Below, in pieces: positions 1,167 through 43,309 of a DNA stretch of 64,000 bases. Position 1 is the stretch's first letter. Every line of letters begins with the position of its first letter. Source of the stretch: a phage; NCBI GenBank assembly GCA_026683435.1, contig GCA_026683435.1_4866.1; one strand, 5' to 3'. The notes beneath the pieces are model-generated. The model saw nothing but the letters and a program-made list of their open reading frames with translations, did no database searches and was not told the origin of the DNA. Both the position numbers and the translations under genes were made by a program.

Positions 1167-1622
1167 GTTGCTTCCTTCTTACTACTATTGCTGCTTCTAT
1201 TGGTAGTCCACGACATATCCCTCGTGGGTGGGTTCGGTGTGTAACCGAATAAGTTTTTCTGTTCCCAGGGCAACGCACCAGGCTTAATTGATTTAGTTGG
1301 CAAACCAGGAACAGAAAAGGGGTATACAGACTAGGGCGCGAGGTGGCTCTGGATTGATGCGTAAGAAAAACCCAAACGGCCCTGGCCTGTAAGTTGGCCC
1401 GAAGTCACCGTGTCGGAGGACAGCCCATGCAGGTAGGCGGCAATGGACACGGTGACCGCGGAAGTGGTTCGTGTTACCCTTGACCCGTGTGTGGATACGC
1501 GTCTTATTTCGAATGCCTTCGGGATAAGGATAACACAAATAGGGCGAGCAAGTGGCAGGGATTCGAACCGTCGAAATATCCGATTATGAGTCGGGTGTTA
1601 ATTCCTCTAACTTCGCTGCTCT

Positions 1623-1691
1623 TGCTTTGACCGGTCTCGAACCGGCGACCTTCCTCAAAGAGGCTGCTCTACCTACCTGAGCTACAAAGCC
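1623..1691 (-). ncRNA. tRNA-like element, possibly a degenerate or pseudo tRNA
   Basis: Minus-strand sequence has an acceptor stem, a D-arm (GCTC/GAGC) and a good T-arm (GCCGG-TTCGAGA-CCGGT), but the anticodon arm does not fold canonically (CCTC-TTT-GAGG). Confidence 0.3.
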
Positions 1692-31710: not shown

Positions 31711-33324
31711 TCATTTCAACAGCGCAGCAGTCGTTCTTTTAATCACGTTGTTAACCGGATTGATTTTGAAACTGCCGTCTGTTGCAAACCAGTAGTTTTT
31801 CGAACTGACCCACTTCCGATTTTCCTCGAGCGCTTCGGTTGACATCGGGCAGTTTGCTGAGCCGGTGTCACCATCGTAGTCACCACCCAATCCACCTAAT
31901 CGGGATGGATGCGGTGCCATGGATTCCACAAAGGTTTTCACGGTACGGTCAGGGAAGCTAATTGCTCCCTTCTCTTTTAACGTGACCCAATCGTCTTCCA
32001 GTTCATGCAAATAGAGGGAAGAGGTGGTGGTCTCCAATCTTATGGTCGAGGAGTAAGTCGAACCGCGTCCCGTAACCGGATAACGCGTGATGAACGAGAA
32101 GTAGTCATTCCAAATATCGTAACCTGACAAATAGAGGAGTTCCGCTAAGCTCAGTCCGCGGACAAGCTTACGGTCACGTCCTTCCGGCAGGTCTTCAATA
32201 TCGTAAAAGATTTTGAAGCTGCGTTTGTCCTGGTAGATTAATGCCACGTAATGGTCCGGATCAATCATCAGCGGTTTATGTCGAAGCTCGCGCGCTTCCA
32301 TTCTGTTGATGAGTGTTTCGATGCCATCGTCGGTAGTGAAAAGGTCATACACCCGCCCGGAGACTTCCAGGAACTCACGCTTGAGTGTTTTGGTGTTAAC
32401 GCCGTATAAGTTGCCGTCCCCTGCCCGGATGTTACTGAGGTAACGTTCACGGATGTGGTATTGAGCCACAGGCAGTAATGCCTTCAGGGTTTGGTACAAA
32501 CCGATACGGGTATCCGTTGGACGAATCGCATCTTCGCGACCCATGACCTTGGAACCGGTTGAGAATGAAGACAGTACGTTACGCGTACCGTTCATTAACT
32601 TACGTGACGTCACTTTACGACGTGCAAAACCACCTTTACCATCCTGGATGTTGAAGAAGTACATCCAGATGTCATTAAAGGTTTGTTGGAGCTTCCAGCG
32701 AACCGGGTCAGTCAGTTCCGTTCGCGTACTGCGGTCGGGGATTGCACGCGCCAGAGAAATCAGACGACGGTAGAGTCCGCCAATCTCTTCTTCTTGGTCG
32801 CGGCCATCCTGACGAATGACCAAATCACGTAATCCCGCAGGCAGAACCAGCACATAGCGGCTGAGACTGACCGGACGGAACTTATTGAAGAAATCGACTG
32901 TCTCGTCGCGACGCATCGACTCGTTGCGACCCGGAGTCAGTTGTTCGTAGTAGCGTAGGAAGAAGTTGAAGCCGGTGTCTGCACCTTTATCACTGGGCAG
33001 AGCCGGCTCGAAATCTTTTTCTTTCTCATTCCAGATAGCGAATCGCTTCCCGGAACAGATTTCTTCGTACAGCTGTTTCAGCTGGAACAATGCCAAACAA
33101 ACGGTCGGCGAAATGATATCCAGTTTGATATCAATGTACGAGAACGTTGAGTCTCGTGCTTCGCTCCCTGTGAGGCCAAAAATTTCGGTTGAATACAGTC
33201 CTTCAGGGTGAAAGTTTTTCGTCAGTCCCTGAAAGGTGTCTGTTGTTGTAACTGGTTTTAAATGCGACACCAGGGACTTATTAACGTTCAGTAGATAAAA
33301 ATCTACCCAGTTAAGCTTTCTCAC
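31711..33324 (-). CDS. multisubunit RNA polymerase beta-prime subunit, N-terminal portion including the catalytic loop
   Basis: GLYSTEIFG (cf. GLFCARIFGP), YVLVLPAGLRDLV (cf. LPVLPPDLRPLV), GGLYRRLISLARAI (cf. NDLYRRVINRNNRL) and GGDYDGDTG (cf. NADFDGD); GTG start with AGGAG RBS. Confidence 0.75.
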   Translation of the reverse strand: MRKLNWVDFYLLNVNKSLVSHLKPVTTTDTFQGLTKNFHPEGLYSTEIFGLTGSEARDSTFSYIDIKLDIISPTVCLALFQLKQLYEEICSGKRFAIWNEKEKDFEPALPSDKGADTGFNFFLRYYEQLTPGRNESMRRDETVDFFNKFRPVSLSRYVLVLPAGLRDLVIRQDGRDQEEEIGGLYRRLISLARAIPDRSTRTELTDPVRWKLQQTFNDIWMYFFNIQDGKGGFARRKVTSRKLMNGTRNVLSSFSTGSKVMGREDAIRPTDTRIGLYQTLKALLPVAQYHIRERYLSNIRAGDGNLYGVNTKTLKREFLEVSGRVYDLFTTDDGIETLINRMEARELRHKPLMIDPDHYVALIYQDKRSFKIFYDIEDLPEGRDRKLVRGLSLAELLYLSGYDIWNDYFSFITRYPVTGRGSTYSSTIRLETTTSSLYLHELEDDWVTLKEKGAISFPDRTVKTFVESMAPHPSRLGGLGGDYDGDTGSANCPMSTEALEENRKWVSSKNYWFATDGSFKINPVNNVIKRTTAALLK

Positions 33325-33354
33325 TTTTTAGGCTCCTGAATTGGAAGAAACATT

Positions 33355-36300
33355 ATGGCAAAAAGAGGCAAAGACGGTTTCGATGATATCGATTTAGATA
33401 GACTCGACGACTGGGATGATTTCGGTGAACCACCCCGTCCCAAAGACGAGAAAAAACGAAGCCCGATACTCAGTACCCTGAATGTTGCCAGGAAGTCGGC
33501 GTTGTCAACTATCTGGCCAGAAGGGAAACGCGACCAAGTTATCCTCAAGGGGATGCCTAAGCCGGCAGCTGATGCATACGAGGGCTATCAGTCAGCGGCA
33601 GCTGCAGCAAAGGACATTTACGCCCATACGAAAGGGGAGCTTGAGAAGACCGAGCGCACGCTGAAGATGCAAGCGCGCCAACTCGGTCCGACAATGAAGA
33701 AATACTTGCCGGATGCAGTTACTAAGCGCATCGACAAGTGGTCAAAATCTGACCAGTTAGATTACCAGAACTACGATCCGAATCAGGCATTGATGGATCG
33801 TGAACTGGGCGACGTATTCTCAGGTGTGCCAAAGGACGCCGACGAACAACGTCAGCTGCAGGACCGCATGGTAGAGGATAAGCTCCGCGACAGCATCAAA
33901 GAGATGCGCGCGGATGCAATGCACCAAACCATGATTGGGATGGCGAAAGACATTAACCTGCTAACCGGGTTAAGCCGTGGGGTATTCTTAAACATCGAGC
34001 GTAAGAAACTCGAATTGCAATACCGTACCCTGTTCGCCATTCAAGACATCGTGAAGATGAAGCAGTCGGAGTTCGATCGTAACACGCCTGCTTTAGAAGC
34101 CATCGTGAAGAACACGGCGCTGCCAGACTACGCGAAGGAAGATTTCTCAGAAGTCCGTTGGGCAAACGTTAAACGCCAGGCTGCGGAATGGATGAACCCA
34201 TTGCGTTATGCTGACGGGTTTATGGACATGATTCGCGAAAATACCAAGAAGAAAATTTCTGGTATATTCGGCGAAGGTCGTGGTTTGTTAGAGTCTGTTC
34301 TCGGCATGGGTGTTGAAGACGATTTCGGCATGAGCGACAGCTCTTCGTTGACTGCCGAACGTCGCAAAACAAATGCTCGCGATAAAGCAACTGCATGGGG
34401 TAGCGGATTCCTTGCGAAGAAACTACTCGGCCCACAAATCGAGAAACTCCAGAAATGGACTCGTGAGGAGATGGAGAAAAATCCAGAGGTCATGAAACGC
34501 CTGCAGAAGGGCGCGTTCACCTTTGGTAATCTTTCCTCTATCTCGAACTCAGCTATCGCAGGCGAAACGCAAGGACCTTTGGCGGATTTGTTCCGGGTAC
34601 TGAATGAACTCGGTATTGTCCAACCGTTAAACCGTGAGAAAGCCTTCCTTGATGAGCGTAATGGCGAAACGTTAAGTCGCTCGGCGAAGTTTGACCGTAA
34701 AGCGTATCTTAGCCTGGTTGAAGTTATTCCTGCCTGGCTGGCAGAGATTAACAAATCTGTTCGTCGTGGCTATGGCGAACATGCCGATCTGGAATACGAC
34801 ATCACCAGTCGTGGTTTCGTGGACCGCAAAGTGGTCGGTAACCGTGTACGCAAAGCGGTTGCAAACGATGAGCAGCGCCTGCGTCTCCAAAATTCCATTA
34901 ACAGCACTGTGGATTTTGTTGACCGTGGCAAAACGCTCTCGCAGAAGGATCGGCAGCATCTTGCCGACTATATCGAGTCACGTGCCTCGCAGGGCCGCGC
35001 ATTCGACGTAGAAGCGATTCTGAAAGACCCGATGCATCTTCATCGGTATATGCCAGGAAACGCCGCAGAACGCATTAAGGAAGCGTTACAGGGGCATTCT
35101 GATAGCTTGGTCGGTGGTAGCAACGAATTAAGTAACGAGCTGGCCCGCAAAATCTCCACAGTGCAGTCATCTATCACCCAACGTCAGGCAATTATCGACG
35201 AGGCGGTGAATATTTACGGTGAGCGAGCATTGCGTGATGCGGGTATCTTTAACTACGACGCGAAGAGTGACACTTTCGGCGTGGATAAAGACCTGTCCGA
35301 TCCCTATACCTTGTTTAATGACTTGGCGATGGGTAAGACACGCAGCGGGCGTGCATTGACTCGTGACCAGGAGATTCAACGTAAGCTGCAAAACGGTTCG
35401 GCGTTAGGCGACTATCTGCGCCGAATGAACCAAGGGGCAAGTGGTGGTGCCGATGACACGTCGTTGCCGCCGGCTTTACGTGGCGGTGGTAAAGGCCGCG
35501 GAATGTCGCCTCGGCAGTTAGCCGCAGTTCTCTACGGTGAAACCTCGACTAACTTTGTTGAATTGTTGAGTCAACGTAACCGCGGCGAAGAAGCACCACG
35601 GAATAACTTTGACGGCATCATCGAAGCGATTCGGGGTAATAACAACAGCGACACCCTCCAGAAAATTCTGGAACACGTTAGAAGTATGGACGAAGAAGGG
35701 GTTCTCCTGGCTTCGTTAGCAGGGGGTGCTGGTTCTGGTGACGAAGAGATGGGACCACCTCGTCCTGGTGGTGGTAGCGGTGGCGGTAAACGCCGCCGTA
35801 TTATCATCGGTGAGGATGGGCTTATTCGTCGTTGGGGCGGTGTGTTGTTCGACACTGCAGCAGGAATCGGTGGCTTTGCAAAACGTGGTGTTAAAGGTGC
35901 CTGGAATAAACTGAATCAGTTCGGTGGCTGGGCGCGCGGTAAAATCGCGGGGATGGGCGGCGGAGAAGGTCCTGGTTTCTTAACCCGGATGCGTGGCCTT
36001 ATCAGCGGTAGTGTCCGTGGGGGCTTTGAAGCGGTAAGCTCTTTCGGTAAAGGATTGCTGGGTATCCGCGACGTTTACGATGACCATGGTAATGTTGTAC
36101 TGCAAGGTGCACGTCTGGAAGCTGGAGAATACTATCAGGTCATTGATGGTAAAATGGTTCAGCTGAAAACGCTGGACGACATCAAACTGGGGAGTGATAT
36201 TGTTGACTCCGCAGGTAATCTGGTATTAGCAGCCGCTGACTTAGCCGCTGCGGGTAAACTCCGCTACTATAAAGGCGGGAAAATCCAAGCACTGACCCAA

Positions 36301-39300
36301 GGTCTGGCCAGTAAGATTGGCTTAGGCTTTAATAAGGTGGCTAAGCTACCGAAACGGTTCCTGGATTTCCTGTCACCGAAAGCAGGCAGCATCGTTGGTA
36401 AGATTAAGGACTGGCTGAACGAGATTCCGGAGGGTGAAGAAAAGACACGTCTCCAGAAAGCGTTCAACCGCGTAACGAGCTTACCGGGTAAAGTGCTCGG
36501 TTTTGCGAAACGTGGTGTCGACCGTCTGAAAGACATGATTACCGACAACCCACTGACGCGTTGGTGGAAAGGCCGTAAAGATGGTGGGGGTGGTGGTTTC
36601 AGTATCTTCTCATCAACCGGAAAGAAAACCAACCACATTCTTATCCGTATCTACAAACTGTTGAACCAACGTTTACCGGGTGATCCGGAAGACGAAAGTT
36701 GGACAGAAGAAATGGAGAAGGGTGTCGGTGGCGGTGGTAGTACGATCGGCCGTGCAGTTCGCGGGGCGTATAATCGTGCGAAATCGTCGTTGTCTGAACG
36801 TTTTGGTGGACGTTGGTCAAGAACAAAAGCGTTCTTTGGTCGTGGACGTGACCGCCTGCGTGGTTGGTTCAGTGGTTTCCGAGGCCGGGCTGGGGATATG
36901 CTCGATGGGTATCGTGGAGCACGACACGACATTGCTACACGTTACGAAGTTGAACGTCGGTTGGCTGGACGTGATGACGACGTTGCTGAGTTTTATCGCA
37001 GTCATTTGAACGCGAAAGGTGGCCTTTCTGGCCGTAAAGTCTACGGTGACGCGAAGGACGACCTTGAGACCGCGCGCGATGCAGCAGGTCGGGTTATCAA
37101 CAAAGGGAAGAACGCTGCCAAATCTGCAGGTGCAAGGTTATTCGAACGCTTGGACCGAATGATTGGCTTGCAAGAGATGTCATGGTTTAACACCATGCGC
37201 GAATCAGTATCCCGTGCAGGTGGTGACGATGGCATTATTCGTACCATGTTTGCGAAGTTCGGTAAACGTAACAAGCCACCTGAAAGTGATGAAAAACGCG
37301 ACTACCTTAACTTCTTCAAACGTTGGCGTGAGAAACGTAAGGAGAAGAAAGAGAAAGCGCAGGGCTCCAAAGGGAAATCTGGCGGTCTGTGGGATATGGT
37401 GAAAGGCTTACCTATCATCGGTCCCATCGTCAGTATCTTGGGAACTGTGGGTAATATACTCGGTTCTATCACGAAATGGGGTGTGTTAAAACCAGTAGGT
37501 CTTTTAGGTAAGGCTGCGTGGAATGTCGGTAAGTTCGCAGTAACCCGTTTGGCGGCACCCGCGGTGTCCGCTGTGGCAACTGCGGCATCTGCCGTCGTGA
37601 CAGCAGTGGGCTGGCCGGCAATTCTTATCGGTGGTGCGATCGCTGCGGCTGGTTACGCCGCGTACAGGATTGCAACGACTACCTATACCCAGTACCTGGA
37701 TAAGATGCGTTTAGCTCAGTACGGTTTCCGTGATTACGATAAGTGGTCGTCGGACGACGGGGCGAAAGCGCGTTACTTAGAAGACGCATTGCGTGAGTAT
37801 GTGTCTTACGCGGAAGATGGCCAAGCCAGTCTCCGCGGGCTAAGTGGAAAAGACGTTCAGAAGTTAGCTGAAGGGTTCGGTATTAACGTCGAGGAAAAAG
37901 GCGAGATGTTGGCCTTCCAAGCGTTTATGCTTCAGCGCTTTATTCCGATTTATCTCCGCTGGATTACGGCACTGAAGTCAATGCCGAACAGTATCCAGTT
38001 GGCTGACGTCGGCGATGCGAAGAAAGTATCGAAAGAGGACATGCTGACTCTCTTCAACAAAATGAAGATGACTAAGGATGCAAAAGCGTTCTCTTCGTTA
38101 ACTGACCCACGCAAAGTCAACCAAGGTTTCTTCTCGAAGGCTTGGGACGTCGTAACCTTTACACCGAAGGAGTTTTTGAGCGGTGAAGAGGTTATGGAAG
38201 TGCAGAATGAAGTCGAGCGTGCAATCAAGTCCAGAATGGACGATAAGAAAGCACGTAAGTACGGAATGGCACCGGCCGTGGAGGGGATTAAATCCGCTGG
38301 CGTTGATGAAGCTATCAACAAACTAGGACAGCTGGATAACGAACGTAACAAAAATCTGGCGAAGGTAGAAGGTTGGGAAGACGGAACAGAGCAGGTTCAG
38401 ATTCAGGTAGACTGGAATGCGGTGCTCGACCAGAAAGACATGAATGCGATGGAATCGGTGCGTTGGAAGACTTACGGCTTTACCACCATCGATAACGCCA
38501 CCCGCACTTTGATCACGGTATTCGAGAAGAACGTCATCAAAGACATTGACGTGAAAACCGCAAGCTACAAAGGAGATTGGAAGAAAGCAATCGCCTCGAT
38601 GGTTCCAGACGCTATCGGCACACCGAAAGAAGATCGTTTGAAACGGTGGTTCTTTGACCGTTTCTTACCGGTATTCATGACGTATTTGGTTGGGGTGAAG
38701 CGTTACCTGCCAACAGCCGATCCGCTGAACTTGAAACTGACCGGCGGCTACCTGTACGAAATCAGTCTGATGATGTCAACTGCCTACAGCTTGAAAGGTG
38801 GTATAAGACAGTCGGTGTGGGAAGTGAATATCAACCCATTAGGGGGTGAGGCTAACACGAACCCATCGTCTATCAAAGCCGAGCTGGAAACGCTGAAGCT
38901 GTTGTCAAAAGAAGCTGACCTTGCCGTGCGTAACATGATTAAAGCCATTAAAAATAATGGCAAGCGTGCACGCTGGAAGGATCGTAACAAGAACCGCAGT
39001 TCTCTGGAAGTTACCGATGAAGATGAAGAAGACTCGAACATCAGTTCGGGAGATTCTTTGTCATCTGACGGTGCTCGCGCCTCAGGCTACATTCCATCGG
39101 GTACGAGTGGTGGTGTGCCGGGTAACTTGGGTCAAGTCGTCGATGCGGTTGGTGGTGTGCGGAACTACGCTGCAATGACCACTGGTTCGTCTTCGATTAA
39201 CCTGAGTGATGTGAAAGACGGTGATTATAAGTCACTGGCTGAAAAATACCCGATAGAAATGTTGGGTAGAAAGGGTGCGTTGAACGTTCCGAATATCAAA

Positions 39301-40476
39301 GCATTGATTACCGATGCGGCGAACATGATGGGCGTGCCACCTGCAGTAGCGTTAGCAATGGCTAAAGCGGAATCCGGTTTTAACTACACCGCTAAAAACC
39401 CGTATGCTTCGGCGTCTGGGCTGTTCCAGTTCATTGACGGCACGTGGAACGGGATGATGAAGGGGTATTCGCGGAAGTTCGGTATTCCGCGTGTTAACCA
39501 AATGGACCCGTGGGCGAATGCTATATTGGGTGTACAGTTCATTCGTGACAACATCCAACAAGCACAGCGTGACCTGGGTGGTAAAGCACCACCTCCAGCC
39601 GTGGCTTATCTGTACCACTTCTTGGGTGCAGGCGGCGGTAAGAAGTTCTTGGAAGCATGGAAGCGTAATCCGAATATGGCGGCATCAAGTGCTCCTGGGA
39701 TTACATCTGCAATACTGAGAGGGAATGCCAACGTCTTCTACAGCAACGGTCGTATACGTAGCGTAGACGGGGTTATTCAGGAACTGAACCGCCGCATGGG
39801 CGCAATTTCCGCCAACGAAGTCGCTGCCGATCCGAGTAAGACGAAGGATATGGTTGCAGGCTTGTCGCCTAATTCACCAACCAACCCGGCAGCAGCAATG
39901 GGTGCACCGGCCGCTAATGATCCGAGTCTGTCGCCAGCAGATAACCTGCCGGCAGATAATGCTAATCGTCGTGATGACGCATTGACGCAGAAAGGGGCCA
40001 TGGCGGCACAAGATGCAATGGCTACCGCCGCAGGTAATGTAGGACCAGCAGCACCTACACCAACCACAGGCGGTACCGGAACATCCGATGCCTCAACAAC
40101 GGCCGAAACCGTAGCGTCGCAAGCTGCAGCAGAAGGATTGTCTGCGACGGATGTTGCTAAAGTGAAAGCAGGCGCGGAAGCGCAGGTTAACGCAGCAGCT
40201 CGTCCAGTTGCCGCTCCAACTTCTGATGCTACAGCATCGACGCCAACGCTGAATGGTGACCCGATAGATGTTCAGCAGCTCAAGGTACTGATTCAGTCTC
40301 GCGATTACTTGAAAGAGATTCGTGATATTTTGAAATCAAATCCAAGAGCGGCAAACGACACACGGGGTGGTAGTATCCAGCAAGCGGCAAATGTGGCTCC
40401 TCCGGGCTCAGCTGCACGTAGGCAGGAAATAACCCAACCGACACCGTCGTTAAACGTAAGTCGGAAAGCAAGCTAA
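33355..40476 (+). CDS. giant virion protein (2373 aa) with C-terminal lytic transglycosylase (SLT) domain; putative tape-measure / cell-wall-penetrating protein
   Basis: SLT signature AKAESGFNYTAKNPYASASGLFQFIDGTWNGM near nt 39350-39700; hydrophobic segment (aa ~1350-1440); Gly-rich and basic repeats (AKRGVKGAW, FAKRGVDRLK); uninterrupted 7.1-kb ORF. Confidence 0.85.
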   Translation: MAKRGKDGFDDIDLDRLDDWDDFGEPPRPKDEKKRSPILSTLNVARKSALSTIWPEGKRDQVILKGMPKPAADAYEGYQSAAAAAKDIYAHTKGELEKTERTLKMQARQLGPTMKKYLPDAVTKRIDKWSKSDQLDYQNYDPNQALMDRELGDVFSGVPKDADEQRQLQDRMVEDKLRDSIKEMRADAMHQTMIGMAKDINLLTGLSRGVFLNIERKKLELQYRTLFAIQDIVKMKQSEFDRNTPALEAIVKNTALPDYAKEDFSEVRWANVKRQAAEWMNPLRYADGFMDMIRENTKKKISGIFGEGRGLLESVLGMGVEDDFGMSDSSSLTAERRKTNARDKATAWGSGFLAKKLLGPQIEKLQKWTREEMEKNPEVMKRLQKGAFTFGNLSSISNSAIAGETQGPLADLFRVLNELGIVQPLNREKAFLDERNGETLSRSAKFDRKAYLSLVEVIPAWLAEINKSVRRGYGEHADLEYDITSRGFVDRKVVGNRVRKAVANDEQRLRLQNSINSTVDFVDRGKTLSQKDRQHLADYIESRASQGRAFDVEAILKDPMHLHRYMPGNAAERIKEALQGHSDSLVGGSNELSNELARKISTVQSSITQRQAIIDEAVNIYGERALRDAGIFNYDAKSDTFGVDKDLSDPYTLFNDLAMGKTRSGRALTRDQEIQRKLQNGSALGDYLRRMNQGASGGADDTSLPPALRGGGKGRGMSPRQLAAVLYGETSTNFVELLSQRNRGEEAPRNNFDGIIEAIRGNNNSDTLQKILEHVRSMDEEGVLLASLAGGAGSGDEEMGPPRPGGGSGGGKRRRIIIGEDGLIRRWGGVLFDTAAGIGGFAKRGVKGAWNKLNQFGGWARGKIAGMGGGEGPGFLTRMRGLISGSVRGGFEAVSSFGKGLLGIRDVYDDHGNVVLQGARLEAGEYYQVIDGKMVQLKTLDDIKLGSDIVDSAGNLVLAAADLAAAGKLRYYKGGKIQALTQGLASKIGLGFNKVAKLPKRFLDFLSPKAGSIVGKIKDWLNEIPEGEEKTRLQKAFNRVTSLPGKVLGFAKRGVDRLKDMITDNPLTRWWKGRKDGGGGGFSIFSSTGKKTNHILIRIYKLLNQRLPGDPEDESWTEEMEKGVGGGGSTIGRAVRGAYNRAKSSLSERFGGRWSRTKAFFGRGRDRLRGWFSGFRGRAGDMLDGYRGARHDIATRYEVERRLAGRDDDVAEFYRSHLNAKGGLSGRKVYGDAKDDLETARDAAGRVINKGKNAAKSAGARLFERLDRMIGLQEMSWFNTMRESVSRAGGDDGIIRTMFAKFGKRNKPPESDEKRDYLNFFKRWREKRKEKKEKAQGSKGKSGGLWDMVKGLPIIGPIVSILGTVGNILGSITKWGVLKPVGLLGKAAWNVGKFAVTRLAAPAVSAVATAASAVVTAVGWPAILIGGAIAAAGYAAYRIATTTYTQYLDKMRLAQYGFRDYDKWSSDDGAKARYLEDALREYVSYAEDGQASLRGLSGKDVQKLAEGFGINVEEKGEMLAFQAFMLQRFIPIYLRWITALKSMPNSIQLADVGDAKKVSKEDMLTLFNKMKMTKDAKAFSSLTDPRKVNQGFFSKAWDVVTFTPKEFLSGEEVMEVQNEVERAIKSRMDDKKARKYGMAPAVEGIKSAGVDEAINKLGQLDNERNKNLAKVEGWEDGTEQVQIQVDWNAVLDQKDMNAMESVRWKTYGFTTIDNATRTLITVFEKNVIKDIDVKTASYKGDWKKAIASMVPDAIGTPKEDRLKRWFFDRFLPVFMTYLVGVKRYLPTADPLNLKLTGGYLYEISLMMSTAYSLKGGIRQSVWEVNINPLGGEANTNPSSIKAELETLKLLSKEADLAVRNMIKAIKNNGKRARWKDRNKNRSSLEVTDEDEEDSNISSGDSLSSDGARASGYIPSGTSGGVPGNLGQVVDAVGGVRNYAAMTTGSSSINLSDVKDGDYKSLAEKYPIEMLGRKGALNVPNIKALITDAANMMGVPPAVALAMAKAESGFNYTAKNPYASASGLFQFIDGTWNGMMKGYSRKFGIPRVNQMDPWANAILGVQFIRDNIQQAQRDLGGKAPPPAVAYLYHFLGAGGGKKFLEAWKRNPNMAASSAPGITSAILRGNANVFYSNGRIRSVDGVIQELNRRMGAISANEVAADPSKTKDMVAGLSPNSPTNPAAAMGAPAANDPSLSPADNLPADNANRRDDALTQKGAMAAQDAMATAAGNVGPAAPTPTTGGTGTSDASTTAETVASQAAAEGLSATDVAKVKAGAEAQVNAAARPVAAPTSDATASTPTLNGDPIDVQQLKVLIQSRDYLKEIRDILKSNPRAANDTRGGSIQQAANVAPPGSAARRQEITQPTPSLNVSRKAS

Positions 40477-40480
40477 TCGT

Positions 40481-40500
40481 AGGGGGTGGCAACACCCCCT
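40481..40500 (+). other. GCAA-tetraloop hairpin (agggggtg-gcaa-caccccct)
   Basis: Perfect 8-bp stem with GNRA-type loop, 5 nt after the giant gene stop. Confidence 0.5.
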
Positions 40501-40524
40501 AATCATCTTACAGAGAGGTTTTAC

Positions 40525-42747
40525 GTGGAAGCAAGACAACTAAAAGATTCAGGATGGGTAACCGGCCTGTTTGGCGGTACAACCGCACAACGCGATGAGC
40601 GTTTCCTGGGTTTGCGTCGTTACTCTAACGCGATGCTCTCGTTTGAAGATACCACGATGGGTGGTTCGCAAGCGTTAAATGCGCCGCCGCAGTTTACGAT
40701 GTTTGCTGATCCGAGTTCAACAGGCGCCTTTGCACAACCTGATGCGGGTCGTGGCTCGTACTCAAAGTACGTTAAAGGTCAAGACCAACGTGGTTCCTAT
40801 CGTTTAGGGACTTTCTATTACGAAGCTATTAACCAAAACAGTTTTTATCTTCATTGTCGTTTCGGTAAACCTCGATATATCGGGGTCGCTGCATTCTTCG
40901 CGAATATGTACGATTCCAACCTAGCGTATCTGGCGCGCACAGGTGACTACCCTGGTATGTTGCGTGCGATGGGGACGTATGTTGCCGCCGCAGCAATATG
41001 GGCCGCAGTAGGTACGGTTGCCTTTGCGGTTATTCTAATTACACCACGTATGTTGAAGATGGTGCTGAACAAGCAGACTTCTCGCTACTACTACGTGAAA
41101 CCGACAATGCACTTGTATCTGCGCGCTGTGCAGAATATGGTTAACACCCAGTTAGTTTATCGCCGATTGGTACCAACGGGTGTGTTAGGGACTTTCCAGC
41201 TTGCTAATGCTGTAGACGGGTCTGAGAAAGGCGGTACTGCTAATAAGTACAACGGCGACCGTAAAGAGTGGTACTCCATGCTGCCAGAAATCTGGACAGC
41301 TGATGGTGAGTTCGATATCTATCGAATGATTAACCGCTACCAAACATTAGCCAACTACCAGGCGAAAACCATCGATAAAATTCGTAAAGAGTCGAGTAAC
41401 GAAGAGGACATGGCTCGTCGTTTGCGAAACTTCTATCTGGAAGCGACGTATTCAACAACCCATTTGGAGAAAGCTGCGCAGTACGAGGTTTCTTTACGTA
41501 ACCTTGAATACGTAGCCAAAGCTGGTAAAGGGTACGATGCTGGTTTTGAAAACGTCGACAACAAAGAAGACGAACTGGTAGCAGGGATGAACGGCAGCAT
41601 TCAGGATGCTCAGTCACAAGGAGGTAAAGCTGAAAACTTCGAAAACGAAGGTGATGCGCAACGTAAAAAGCTTGCCGAGCGTATGGCACAGGTTGAAAAG
41701 AACCAGGCTCAGGTTGCTAAAAGTCAGACTGAAGCAAACTCAATGGATGAGAATAATCTCGACATTGGGAAGATTGAAAACTGGATGGACCAAGGCCAGA
41801 AAGAATCTGTCGGTAGCGTCTTCAAAGACTATATCGATATTTTAGAAGGCGCTATGGATGGGTTAACTTCGAACATCGCTTCGGAGATACGCAATGGTTC
41901 GCAGTGGATTACTTGGCGTGTTGATGGACGTGATACCGTAGGGCGTTCGTTCTCCAACACCACCAAAGAACCTGAAATCTCTGGCACGGTTAACTCCGCC
42001 ACACAGAAAGCACGTTCTTTAGAAGTAAACCTCTCTGGTGGTAAGACTGGTTTCGACGCAGTCGATGGTCTCATTACTGGGTTGAAGTCCGCCTTTACAG
42101 GCGCACTCGATTTCTTGCATTTATCAGGGATTATGTCGCTGTACAACTCGTCAGTGATTGACTTCCCGGAAGTGTGGGACTCCTCAGACACCTCAGGTGA
42201 CGATATCTCGCTAAGTATTCCCCTTCGCTGTTGGTCGGGTAACGACTTAGATGTGTTCCAGGATCTGATTGTCCCGTTGTCGTTCTGGTTAGCGGCAGTT
42301 TGCCCGTTAGCAACCGGTAAACAATCGTTTACGCACCCGTTCTATCTGGAGTGTTATTCTCGTGGTCATTATTCCATGCGTAATGCCATGGTAACTAACT
42401 TGAGTCTCCAGTTTGGTACAGGTGGGTTAGGGTGGCGTGCTGACGGTCTGCCGTTGTCGTGTGATATACAGGTAACTATTCGTGACCTGTCGCGTGTTAT
42501 GTACATGCCGATTGTAACTGATATTGGTGTGTTTGATGATGATAACAAGTTCAGTGAATTTATGTCTGTGTTGGGCGCTGCCACGCTTTACGAGCGTACC
42601 AACGGTATCGCGCAGGCTAAAATCAATGCGTCTATCTGGGCGCAGAACTGGGCAAGTGCCTGGTCACAGGGCAGCATCGTCAACGCCGCATTAGATATCA
42701 TACCAGCACGACAAATCGCGAACATTTTCCTACCACAAGCGCGATAG
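40525..42747 (+). CDS. hypothetical protein, putative virion protein (~740 aa)
   Basis: Long ORF; start placed at GTG 40525 preceded by AGAGAGG RBS (ORF track began at GTG 40486, inside the hairpin). Confidence 0.55.
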   Translation: MEARQLKDSGWVTGLFGGTTAQRDERFLGLRRYSNAMLSFEDTTMGGSQALNAPPQFTMFADPSSTGAFAQPDAGRGSYSKYVKGQDQRGSYRLGTFYYEAINQNSFYLHCRFGKPRYIGVAAFFANMYDSNLAYLARTGDYPGMLRAMGTYVAAAAIWAAVGTVAFAVILITPRMLKMVLNKQTSRYYYVKPTMHLYLRAVQNMVNTQLVYRRLVPTGVLGTFQLANAVDGSEKGGTANKYNGDRKEWYSMLPEIWTADGEFDIYRMINRYQTLANYQAKTIDKIRKESSNEEDMARRLRNFYLEATYSTTHLEKAAQYEVSLRNLEYVAKAGKGYDAGFENVDNKEDELVAGMNGSIQDAQSQGGKAENFENEGDAQRKKLAERMAQVEKNQAQVAKSQTEANSMDENNLDIGKIENWMDQGQKESVGSVFKDYIDILEGAMDGLTSNIASEIRNGSQWITWRVDGRDTVGRSFSNTTKEPEISGTVNSATQKARSLEVNLSGGKTGFDAVDGLITGLKSAFTGALDFLHLSGIMSLYNSSVIDFPEVWDSSDTSGDDISLSIPLRCWSGNDLDVFQDLIVPLSFWLAAVCPLATGKQSFTHPFYLECYSRGHYSMRNAMVTNLSLQFGTGGLGWRADGLPLSCDIQVTIRDLSRVMYMPIVTDIGVFDDDNKFSEFMSVLGAATLYERTNGIAQAKINASIWAQNWASAWSQGSIVNAALDIIPARQIANIFLPQAR

Positions 42748-42769: not shown

Positions 42770-43309
42770 ATGAGTTTATTTGGAAAGACCGCAAAAGAGT
42801 TGGTTTACGATCTTATCGTGTCCCAGAATCCCGGACTGGCTGGTAAGGGCGTGACCATCGATAAATTGTCGTTCGGTAACCCGTCGCACATCACCGCAGC
42901 CGATCCTGACCCAGAACAGTACACCAGACTGAACACCAGTCTCGATGTTTCTGGTATCGTTGAGAAAGGTACGTTTGGTAAGATGGGTCTTACTTACCGT
43001 CGACTGGACGTAGCCCACCTGTTTGAAAACGTGGTGCTGTCTGTAGATGGTAGTAGCGCATCCACTGCTGCTGATCTTGTCCCGTTATTGCAGGCTAAGT
43101 ATAACTGGATGATTGACACATCGGAGATCTATGCAAACGAGTCAATGACATCTTCCACGAAACACAATTTGCGTTTCAATGGCAAGTCTTTGGCTTGGAC
43201 TGGCACGGTTGAAGTTTATCTAACCGAAGTTCCAAGTGATGGCGTCGATATCAGTAAACTGATCACTGTTACTGAGCTGAATGGCTTGGTTTATGAAGTC
43301 TCGATATGA
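42770..43309 (+). CDS. hypothetical protein (179 aa)
   Basis: ORF with GAGGT RBS; followed by a terminator. Confidence 0.55.
   Translation: MSLFGKTAKELVYDLIVSQNPGLAGKGVTIDKLSFGNPSHITAADPDPEQYTRLNTSLDVSGIVEKGTFGKMGLTYRRLDVAHLFENVVLSVDGSSASTAADLVPLLQAKYNWMIDTSEIYANESMTSSTKHNLRFNGKSLAWTGTVEVYLTEVPSDGVDISKLITVTELNGLVYEVSI

Follow-up and report, generated by a model that had tools for sequence, protein, structure and literature searches.

Two proteins of well-studied jumbo phages are the closest described relatives of the gene considered here. In the Salmonella phage SPN3US, gp239 (259 kDa) is the largest virion protein identified by mass spectrometry and has been named the tail tape measure protein (PMC5105663, PMC5694885, PMC10052503). 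In phiKZ, the product of orf181 has been termed a lysozyme-containing tail protein and "likely the tape measure" (PMC12676376). The present analysis concerns a member of this family encoded on a stretch of phage DNA of 64,000 nucleotides (contig GCA_026683435.1_4866.1 of NCBI GenBank assembly GCA_026683435.1), which is referred to as a whole as the window. At positions 33355-40476 on the plus strand, the window contains one uninterrupted 7.1-kb open reading frame (ORF) for a protein of 2373 amino acids (aa), below called the giant protein. The literature already covers the gene, the place of its product in the virion, its reading as a tape measure and the family's muralytic domain, and the giant gene mostly confirms this knowledge. 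What is added here is a corrected reading of its supposed repeats, a duplicated family-specific module, a family-wide hydrophobic block, a swappable muralytic domain, and the observation that the 2026 phiKZ virion atlas, the jumbo-phage structure of greatest completeness, still gives the family no place. These points are useful leads rather than surprises.

The published data on gp239 are informative about its place in the particle. The protein is detected by mass spectrometry in SPN3US virions, is missing from the tailless DNA-filled particles of the gp64 amber mutant 64_112(am27), and is at least 10-fold depleted in particles of the tail-tube mutant 255(am107) (PMC5105663, PMC5694885, PMC10052503). 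In the published table it peaks in the top gel slice beside a 188-kDa protein and is represented by 107 unique peptides; prohead-protease processing is not noted for it, and the "Head" flag is not set. Relative to mass, its spectral count amounts to 0.77; the portal, with 12 copies, reaches 0.93, and gp238, a hexamer in phiKZ, 0.56. This value fits roughly 6-12 copies, spectral counting being a crude measure. The gel position, the peptides, the spectral count per mass and the lack of both processing and a head flag therefore identify gp239 as a full-size tail protein, probably of low copy number, and for this orthologue both the tail location and the lack of processing are established. The supplement text of PMC10052503 holds no gp239 entry, and PMC10643120 mentions SPN3US in its references only.

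For phiKZ, a transposon screen yielded no insertions in the 6.7-kb orf181, which is essential, and the neighboring orf182 was termed a baseplate protein (PMC12676376). The C-terminal domain of gp181 is reported as muralytic (Briers 2008, as cited in PMC5380687). The phiKZ virion atlas, which covers 40 proteins, describes a tail of 2000 Å with 43 tube rings and names gp164 as the spike, gp163.1 as the tip, gp101 as the hub, gp182 as the spacer ring and gp88 as the tube initiator (PMC13250141). The structure preprint by Goslar mentions neither a tape measure nor a transglycosylase.

Kinship of the giant gene with SPN3US gp239 and phiKZ gp181

The giant gene shares 97% nucleotide and 98.9% amino acid identity with its equivalent in SPN3US (Seoulvirus), and the gene order is the same in both phages. 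The likeness to gp239 (YP_009153533) extends over the full length of the proteins (2372 vs 2373 aa) and to the flanks, where the virion RNA polymerase (vRNAP) genes gp240/gp241 lie upstream and run on the opposite strand, gp238 being the downstream neighbor. The two proteins differ by 21 amino acid substitutions and by one extra codon in the giant gene, and none of these differences is of functional note. The extra codon, at residue 805 (nucleotides 35767-35769), is the only length difference; it lies within a GGGSGGG run, which fits the idea that the Gly-rich linkers are indel-tolerant parts of the protein. The profile of PHROG 3201 matches the giant protein end to end (E=0, 2457 bits, reaching the profile end at 2408). 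Judged by gene order and identity, the giant gene is the counterpart of SPN3US gp239. An earlier note on this DNA, made from the letters alone and here called the sequence-only reading, had proposed a virion protein, and the detection of the 98.9% identical gp239 in virions bears this out.

The same reading had described a single uninterrupted ORF, and named a fused mis-assembly as the finding that would overturn it. The ORF proved to be full-length and collinear in 61 phage records. Its codon differences from SPN3US comprise 178 synonymous and 21 non-synonymous changes, a signature of purifying selection. Because the frame is intact in 61 records and its codons differ in this manner, it is clearly a real gene and neither a chance ORF nor a mis-assembly. 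The suggestion that the long frame is a fusion artefact of mis-assembly or sequencing error is further contradicted by 92 database proteins of similar length and by the 259-kDa product of the orthologue, with its 107 unique peptides in the top gel slice, and we give it no credence. The giant ORF sits in a plus-strand gene block inside a mostly minus-strand region, and the GC skew is strongly positive. In one record, that of Salmonella phage SPFM20 (LR535917), the homologue P0052 (2364 aa) scores 1047 bits in HMMER, the best BLASTP match covers 3% of the query, and tblastn matches residues 992-1050 only; this record may contain a frameshift in the giant gene or be of poor quality there.

The sequence-only reading had also recommended a comparison with proteins of the phiKZ gp181 type, which we carried out through gp158 (2237 aa) of the phiKZ-type phage SL2. 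BLASTP aligns the two proteins near the N-terminus (residues 12-603 vs 26-631, E 3e-15), in a small central domain (897-958 vs 1049-1106, 38% identity) and across the C-terminal half (1383-2148 vs 1297-2047, E 6e-29). Since these collinear matches occur at three places, the homology to the phiKZ-type protein extends beyond the lytic transglycosylase (SLT) domain described below. The gene order is conserved as well. Divergent genes for the vRNAP beta and beta' subunits, then an ORF of about 2200-2500 aa, then a gp182-like gene are also found in SL2, 201phi2-1 (where the large protein is gp276), CR5 and pVa-21, so that the synteny is held in five phages and genera: SPN3US, phiKZ-type SL2, 201phi2-1, Cronobacter CR5 and Vibrio pVa-21. 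The proposed adjacency to virion RNA polymerase genes is likewise borne out, both by the identification of the neighboring genes with PHROG and by the SPN3US gene order. The phiKZ gp181 and 201phi2-1 gp276 type of protein thus has the same gene order, is collinear with the giant protein and keeps the SLT domain with its catalytic Glu, but SL2 gp158 and 201phi2-1 gp276 are only about 20-24% identical to the giant protein and are shorter by 36-136 residues (2337 aa in gp276 and 2237 aa in gp158, vs 2373 aa). On these sequence grounds, the giant protein is an orthologue of both phiKZ gp181 and SPN3US gp239 (PHROG 3201).

Domain organization of the giant protein

The domain map was drawn with a family alignment of 92 database relatives and two phage homologues (MAFFT, fast mode; 95 family members are counted) and with two AlphaFold2 (AF2) models. 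Membrane and helix calls derive from Kyte-Doolittle windows and AF2 secondary structure only. Family length is tightly constrained, with the 5th to 95th percentile at 2234-2561 aa among the 95 proteins.

The best characterized part of the map is a lysozyme-like SLT domain at residues 1946-2150 (nucleotides 39190-39804), located by Pfam, alignment and fold search. Pfam SLT (PF01464, GH23) matches residues 1984-2072 with E 6e-10 and 39.2 bits, above the gathering cut-off of 21.3 bits, and the lysozyme-like fold was recovered. The family-1 lytic transglycosylase signature ES...GLFQF that the sequence-only reading had placed in the C-terminal region was found there, with the E-S motif at E2006-S2007 and GLFQF at 2022-2026. 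Glu2006 (nucleotides 39370-39372) aligns to the catalytic Glu115 of phiKZ gp144, and Glu occupies this column in 91 of the 95 relatives. Three of the four exceptions have Asp, and in them a GH19 domain replaces SLT; the fourth, P0076, has Val, and no muralytic domain was detected in it. Peptidoglycan cleavage by the SLT domain of the giant protein is predicted from its sequence, the reported activity being that of the gp181 C-terminal domain. Within the family the muralytic module is swapped at a fixed C-terminal position: P0041 carries GH19, P0083 carries SLT with Peptidase_M23, and P0085 carries VanY with SLT. P0085 has in addition a Peptidase_S74 intramolecular-chaperone motif at residues 703-747, within the putative ruler region.

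The closest structural relative of the SLT domain is phiKZ gp144 itself, the endolysin and neck wedge (PDB 3bkh, 9xps). This protein differs in being 260 aa long, in having an N-terminal peptidoglycan-binding domain, and in sitting on the outside of the neck instead of forming part of a giant lumen protein. The atlas gives it six copies, wedged between the neck whiskers and the sheath (PMC13250141). Because gp144 is a neck wedge, SLT-fold proteins have at least two separate virion roles in phiKZ-like phages.

A hydrophobic block occupies residues 1346-1443 (nucleotides 37390-37683) and is apparent from both Kyte-Doolittle values and composition (A 20%, G 13%, V 12%, I 10%). The sequence-only reading had noticed this Ala/Gly/Val-rich stretch and put it at about 80 residues; the stretch itself stands, and its size is closer to 98 residues. 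Kyte-Doolittle values over 19 residues (KD19) reach at least 1.6 in two sub-segments, at 1351-1372 and 1399-1433, and the block is a potential site of about 3-4 membrane helices. It is the global hydrophobicity maximum in 89 of the 95 family members, always at about 55-63% along the length of the protein.

Two copies of a module of about 135 residues lie downstream of this block. Copy A spans residues 1444-1588 (nucleotides 37684-38118; motifs RLAQYGF ... QRFIPIYLRW; AF2 predicted local distance difference test, pLDDT, about 80-93) and copy B spans residues 1695-1831 (nucleotides 38437-38847; motifs VRWKTYGF ... DRFLPVFMTY). HHalign relates the two with a probability of 98.7% (E 3e-16, 130 columns). 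They have in common the motifs R-x-x-x-Y-G-[FL] and [WF]-x-x-R-F-[IL]-P-[IV]-[YF], and in the AF2 model both follow the order helix-helix-hairpin-helix-long-helix. Residues 1444-1852 comprise two confidently modelled globular regions. A direct BLASTP comparison of the copies is marginal (E 0.015), and the duplication is clear only with family profiles. When copy A alone was searched with phmmer against 1.84 billion representative proteins, 250 clusters were matched, most of them in two stretches. Nearly all are proteins of 2000-3300 aa with the module at the same relative position, which makes the module a hallmark of this giant-protein family. Searches of Pfam and NCBIfam gave no family for the module, and solved structures gave no match to it; fold searches with the whole model were dominated by the lysozyme fold.

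This pair is the only real internal repeat that we detected. The sequence-only reading had described reiterated basic Gly-rich modules and a repeat architecture in the N-terminal 1900 residues. Gly-rich, net-basic stretches are present, but they are not reiterated: self-BLASTP of the giant protein (E<=1000) gave no off-diagonal match, Tandem Repeats Finder and a DNA direct-repeat search on the ORF returned chance-level matches only, and an all-against-all profile-profile comparison that replaced HHrepID and covered the family in 57 overlapping segments of 120 residues detected no repeats in the Gly-rich basic regions. The only shared peptide in a k-mer comparison is the heptapeptide GFAKRGV, at residues 840 and 1049. 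The supposed repeats are thus better described as compositionally biased linkers, and the sole duplication lies downstream of the hydrophobic block, at 1444-1588 and 1695-1831.

The remainder of the protein can be followed from its N-terminus. The first 30 residues (nucleotides 33355-33444) form an acidic conserved tip with 30% Asp. Its pattern M-A-K...D..D.D..D..DF..P is conserved in at least 50-70% of the 95 relatives, and D13, L14, D18 and D19 are invariant in six divergent phage homologues. Residues 31-650 (33445-35304) make up a conserved, mainly alpha-helical region, putatively the first part of a ruler. AF2 predicts 73% helix for residues 1-650, with pLDDT of 70-88 at about 340-660 and low values elsewhere, and conservation is high. 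A variable Gly-rich net-basic linker (linker I) follows at residues 651-900 (35305-36054). With 14-29% gaps in the family alignment, it belongs to the stretches with the weakest conservation and the most indels; residues 780-900 have 30% Gly and a net charge of +7, and AF2 pLDDT is below 50 at 774-904, where disorder is predicted. A small conserved beta-rich domain at residues 901-970 (36055-36264; pLDDT 71-79, 31% strand) contains the short motif pair D..GN.VL....L at 903-917 and 945-959 (HHalign probability 88%).

Between this domain and the hydrophobic block lies a second helical and Gly/Arg/Lys-rich region, region II, at residues 971-1345 (36265-37389). It is the least conserved part of the protein (up to 39% gaps), with a net charge of +7 to +10 per segment. 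Residues 971-1200 are predicted as 73% helix at low confidence, residues 1150-1260 have 16% Gly, 16% Arg and a net charge of +10, and residues 1300-1345, a Lys-rich stretch directly before the block, are 37% Lys+Arg. Over residues 1-1200 as a whole, AF2 predicts 66% helix, at low pLDDT. Downstream of the duplicated module, residues 1853-1945 (38911-39189) form a disordered Gly/Ser/Asp/Asn-rich linker of low conservation (pLDDT below 50, model residues 414-506) that leads to the SLT domain. The latter is followed by a poorly conserved, low-complexity Ala/Thr/Pro-rich tail at residues 2151-2320 (39805-40314; 25% Ala, 10% Thr, 9% Pro). The C-terminal end, residues 2321-2373 with the stop codon (40315-40476), is known from the family consensus and is a putative distal anchor, a role it may have by analogy with T5 pb2. 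Near this end the 95 relatives conserve two positions only, Leu 2319, which lies just upstream of it, and an Arg close to the C-terminus; a Leu and an Arg column are nearly invariant in the alignments there. Outside the SLT domain, searches of the giant protein with Pfam (E<=0.01) and NCBIfam give no family.

The tape measure assignment and its alternatives

We consider it likely that the giant protein is a tail tape measure-type protein of a SPN3US-like (Seoulvirus) jumbo myophage. Besides the published assignments of gp239 and orf181, the dimensions of the protein are compatible with such a role. The 1345 residues that precede the hydrophobic block would measure 202 nm as a helix at 0.15 nm per residue, close to the length of the phiKZ tail. 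In addition, the phiKZ atlas gives the spike, tip, hub and spacer to other proteins and leaves gp181 unplaced, which we count in favor of this assignment. The exchange of the muralytic module within the family also has its parallel in other tape measure proteins.

Two tape measure proteins offer useful parallels. T5 pb2 has the module order of the giant protein: a long helical and coiled-coil ruler, a hydrophobic segment of about 46 residues, a muralytic domain in the C-terminal part and, last, an end whose final 35 residues are proposed as its anchor in the tip. It is expelled on infection, and its C-terminal peptidase has been proposed to digest peptidoglycan and its approximately 46 hydrophobic residues to form a membrane channel. 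It differs from the giant protein in being half the size, in belonging to a siphovirus, in carrying a Zn-peptidase instead of SLT and in being proteolytically processed, and it has no detectable sequence homology to the giant protein and no duplicated module. T4 gp29 is the tape measure of a myovirus. Its coiled-coil part and transmembrane part also agree with the module order of the giant protein; the transmembrane part makes the channel for genome translocation, and the protein is bound to the hexameric gp48 tube-initiator ring. It is only about 590 aa long, has no muralytic domain (the T4 lysozyme is on the gp5 spike) and has no sequence homology to the giant protein. In T4, the tube-initiator genes 48 and 54 come directly after gene 29, an arrangement similar to the adjacency of gp239 and gp238.

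These analogues lead us to propose a scheme modelled on what has been shown or proposed for T4 gp29 and T5 pb2. About six copies of the giant protein would lie inside the tail tube of about 200 nm, a tube that is expected to have about 264 subunits in SPN3US. The mostly helical N-terminal part of about 1345 residues, with its flexible Gly-rich basic linkers, would serve as an assembly scaffold or ruler for tube polymerization, and the C-terminal end would dock at the tube-initiator and spacer rings, with the product of the adjacent gene among them; for this docking, the neighboring spacer-ring gene is no more than a hint. Once the sheath has contracted and the spike is gone, the giant protein would leave through the tip of the tube. 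Local cutting of peptidoglycan would fall to its SLT domain (Glu2006), and the hydrophobic block of 98 residues would become inserted in the inner membrane and form or line a conduit for DNA and ejected proteins. We infer the lumen location, length determination, ejection and membrane insertion, and likewise a role for the duplicated module. That the protein is injected, as the sequence-only reading had it, is plausible in view of T4 and T5.

Several observations weigh against a tape measure. In full, the chain exceeds what a simple helical ruler would need for a tail of 200 nm by a factor of about 1.8, at 0.089 nm per residue compared with 0.158 for lambda gpH, so that about 1000 residues of folded domains must also fit somewhere. 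The AF2 model folds back the helical region 340-660, which weakens the arithmetic of 0.15 nm per residue. In pVa-21, a tail of 240 nm faces 1362 residues before the hydrophobic block, equivalent to 204 nm, and tail and protein lengths do not track each other. The only tail lengths found were 200 nm for phiKZ and 240 +/- 9 nm (negative stain) for pVa-21, and they do not discriminate. The hydrophobic block is much weaker in the phiKZ-type and 201phi2-1 homologues (KD19 maxima 1.2 and 1.06, vs 1.9 in the giant protein), and membrane insertion may therefore not be universal. No structure puts the family in the tube lumen: no chain in PDB matched the family profile outside the SLT domain, and gp181 is nowhere mentioned or modelled in the 40-protein atlas (PMC13250141). 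In the literature on the gp239/gp181 family we found no experiment on length determination, ejection or membrane insertion. Finally, the genes upstream are the divergent vRNAP genes, and a chaperone pair with a programmed frameshift, as in lambda G/GT, is absent there. Such a pair is not known from T4-type myoviruses either, so that it is not defining for all tape measure proteins.

Some of these observations would be accommodated by a protein of the tail lumen or baseplate that serves as an ejection conduit, degrading the wall and forming a membrane channel while another factor sets the tail length. The large size would then reflect cargo or conduit functions, in keeping with the 1.8-fold excess of residues over the needs of a ruler, the folded nature of about 1000 C-terminal residues, the predicted helical bundle in part of the N-terminal region, the failure of the pVa-21 tail to follow protein length and the lack of a length-determination experiment in the gp239/gp181 literature. 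On the other hand, neither SPN3US nor phiKZ has another known tape measure candidate, and among the tail genes this one is the largest; protein length is held within narrow limits in the family; the part before the hydrophobic block corresponds to about 200 nm; and the tape measure proteins of T4 and T5 combine both roles. We therefore regard a conduit without a measuring function as unlikely. An older reading of phiKZ gp181 and 201phi2-1 gp276 sees in them a needle-like cell-puncturing device at the center of the baseplate. It survives in a review table that lists gp181 under this description after Briers 2008 (PMC5380687) and in the record of 201phi2-1 gp276, which notes a "putative cell-puncturing device", and the muralytic domain recalls that of T4 gp5. 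The atlas, however, builds the spike complex from the gp164 spike, the gp163.1 tip and the gp101 hub, with gp181 not part of it (PMC13250141). Neither AF2 model nor Pfam gives an OB-fold or beta-helix of the T4 gp5 type, and the protein is mostly helical with a membrane block, all of which makes a needle quite improbable.

The sequence-only reading had offered "tape-measure or inner-body protein", and of these two the published assignments of gp239 and orf181 favor the former. A head-packaged inner-body or ejection protein might be suspected from the adjoining vRNAP subunit genes, whose products are packaged in the head, and from the resemblance of the SLT domain to the T7-type internal virion protein D/gp16. 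Yet the giant gene is transcribed divergently from the vRNAP genes, and gp239 is absent from tailless DNA-filled 64_112(am27) heads and reduced 10-fold or more in 255(am107) particles. It carries no head flag, prohead-protease processing is not noted for it, and it is found in the top gel slice. We consider a place in the head very improbable. Least credible of the functional alternatives is a tail fiber or receptor-binding protein, for which there is barely any room left in the data. "Tail fiber protein" is the product name in most GenBank records and the label of PHROG 3201, and one distant relative has the Peptidase_S74 chaperone motif. The giant protein has no fiber-type domains but a ruler-like helical N-terminus, a membrane block and SLT. 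Moreover, the phiKZ fibers are gp131 paralogues (PMC13250141), the fiber and baseplate candidates of SPN3US are gp168-170, and conservation this strong in phages whose hosts belong to different genera is unusual in receptor-binding proteins. The tape measure assignment thus has corrective value, as most database records still say "tail fiber protein".

The tape measure assignment touches on the questions of how a 200-nm jumbo tail is measured and how DNA and tens of megadaltons of proteins cross the cell envelope, and the domain map provides targets for genetics in SPN3US, where an amber-mutant system exists. We also speculate, as a rather unlikely extension, that the C-terminal part of about 1000 residues, with the hydrophobic block, the duplicated module and the swappable muralytic domain, is a jumbo-phage-specific ejected device that does more than cut the wall. 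If so, the device might build a conduit across the envelope with a width sufficient for the bolus of ejected proteins, or might help to pinch off the vesicle of early phage infection (EPI) that phiKZ-like phages derive from the inner membrane. The duplicated module of about 135 residues would then be a new functional domain, represented in at least 250 sequence clusters, nearly all of them giant proteins of the same type.

Neighboring genes and other features of the window

Upstream of the giant gene, on the opposite strand, are genes for the prohead protease and the two vRNAP subunits; downstream are a gene for a protein of 740-750 aa and a small virion structural gene. The vRNAP beta' gene starts with GTG at 33324 (minus strand), preceded by AGGAG (the reverse complement of 33333-33337), and the giant ORF starts with ATG at 33355, with GGAAG upstream at 33343-33347. 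These divergent starts (interval 33320-33357) have only 30 bp between them, which leaves no room for a promoter, so that each promoter would lie inside the other gene or further off.

The first downstream gene, at 40486-42747 (plus strand), encodes a homologue of phiKZ gp182, as indicated by matches to SL2 gp157 (BLASTP, E 4e-40) and to PDB chain 9xqs_K, PHIKZ182 (E 1e-61). In the phiKZ atlas, gp182 is the hexameric spacer ring between the tube initiator and the hub (PMC13250141). The ORF also matches chain 11lx_H, named "Tail tube initiator complex protein gp203", and, oddly, chain 36za_rp, which was deposited as "Capsid decorator gp77". The GTG start of the longest-ORF call at 40486 is probably about 13-14 codons too early, because the PHROG match begins at residue 15 and the coding sequence in SPN3US is 740 aa. 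A small ORF at 42770-43309 (plus strand) matches Pfam DUF7941 (E 4e-26) and PHROG 2935, "virion structural protein", and extends the plus-strand block of tail and baseplate genes beyond the giant ORF.

Two elements near the start of the window concern tRNA. A tRNA-like element at 1622-1691 (minus strand) is seen by Rfam only, at 37.1 bits (gathering score 29), with no call from ARAGORN. A tRNA-Trp gene (anticodon CCA) at 2780-2855, also on the minus strand, is found by ARAGORN and Rfam in agreement (Rfam 65.6 bits).

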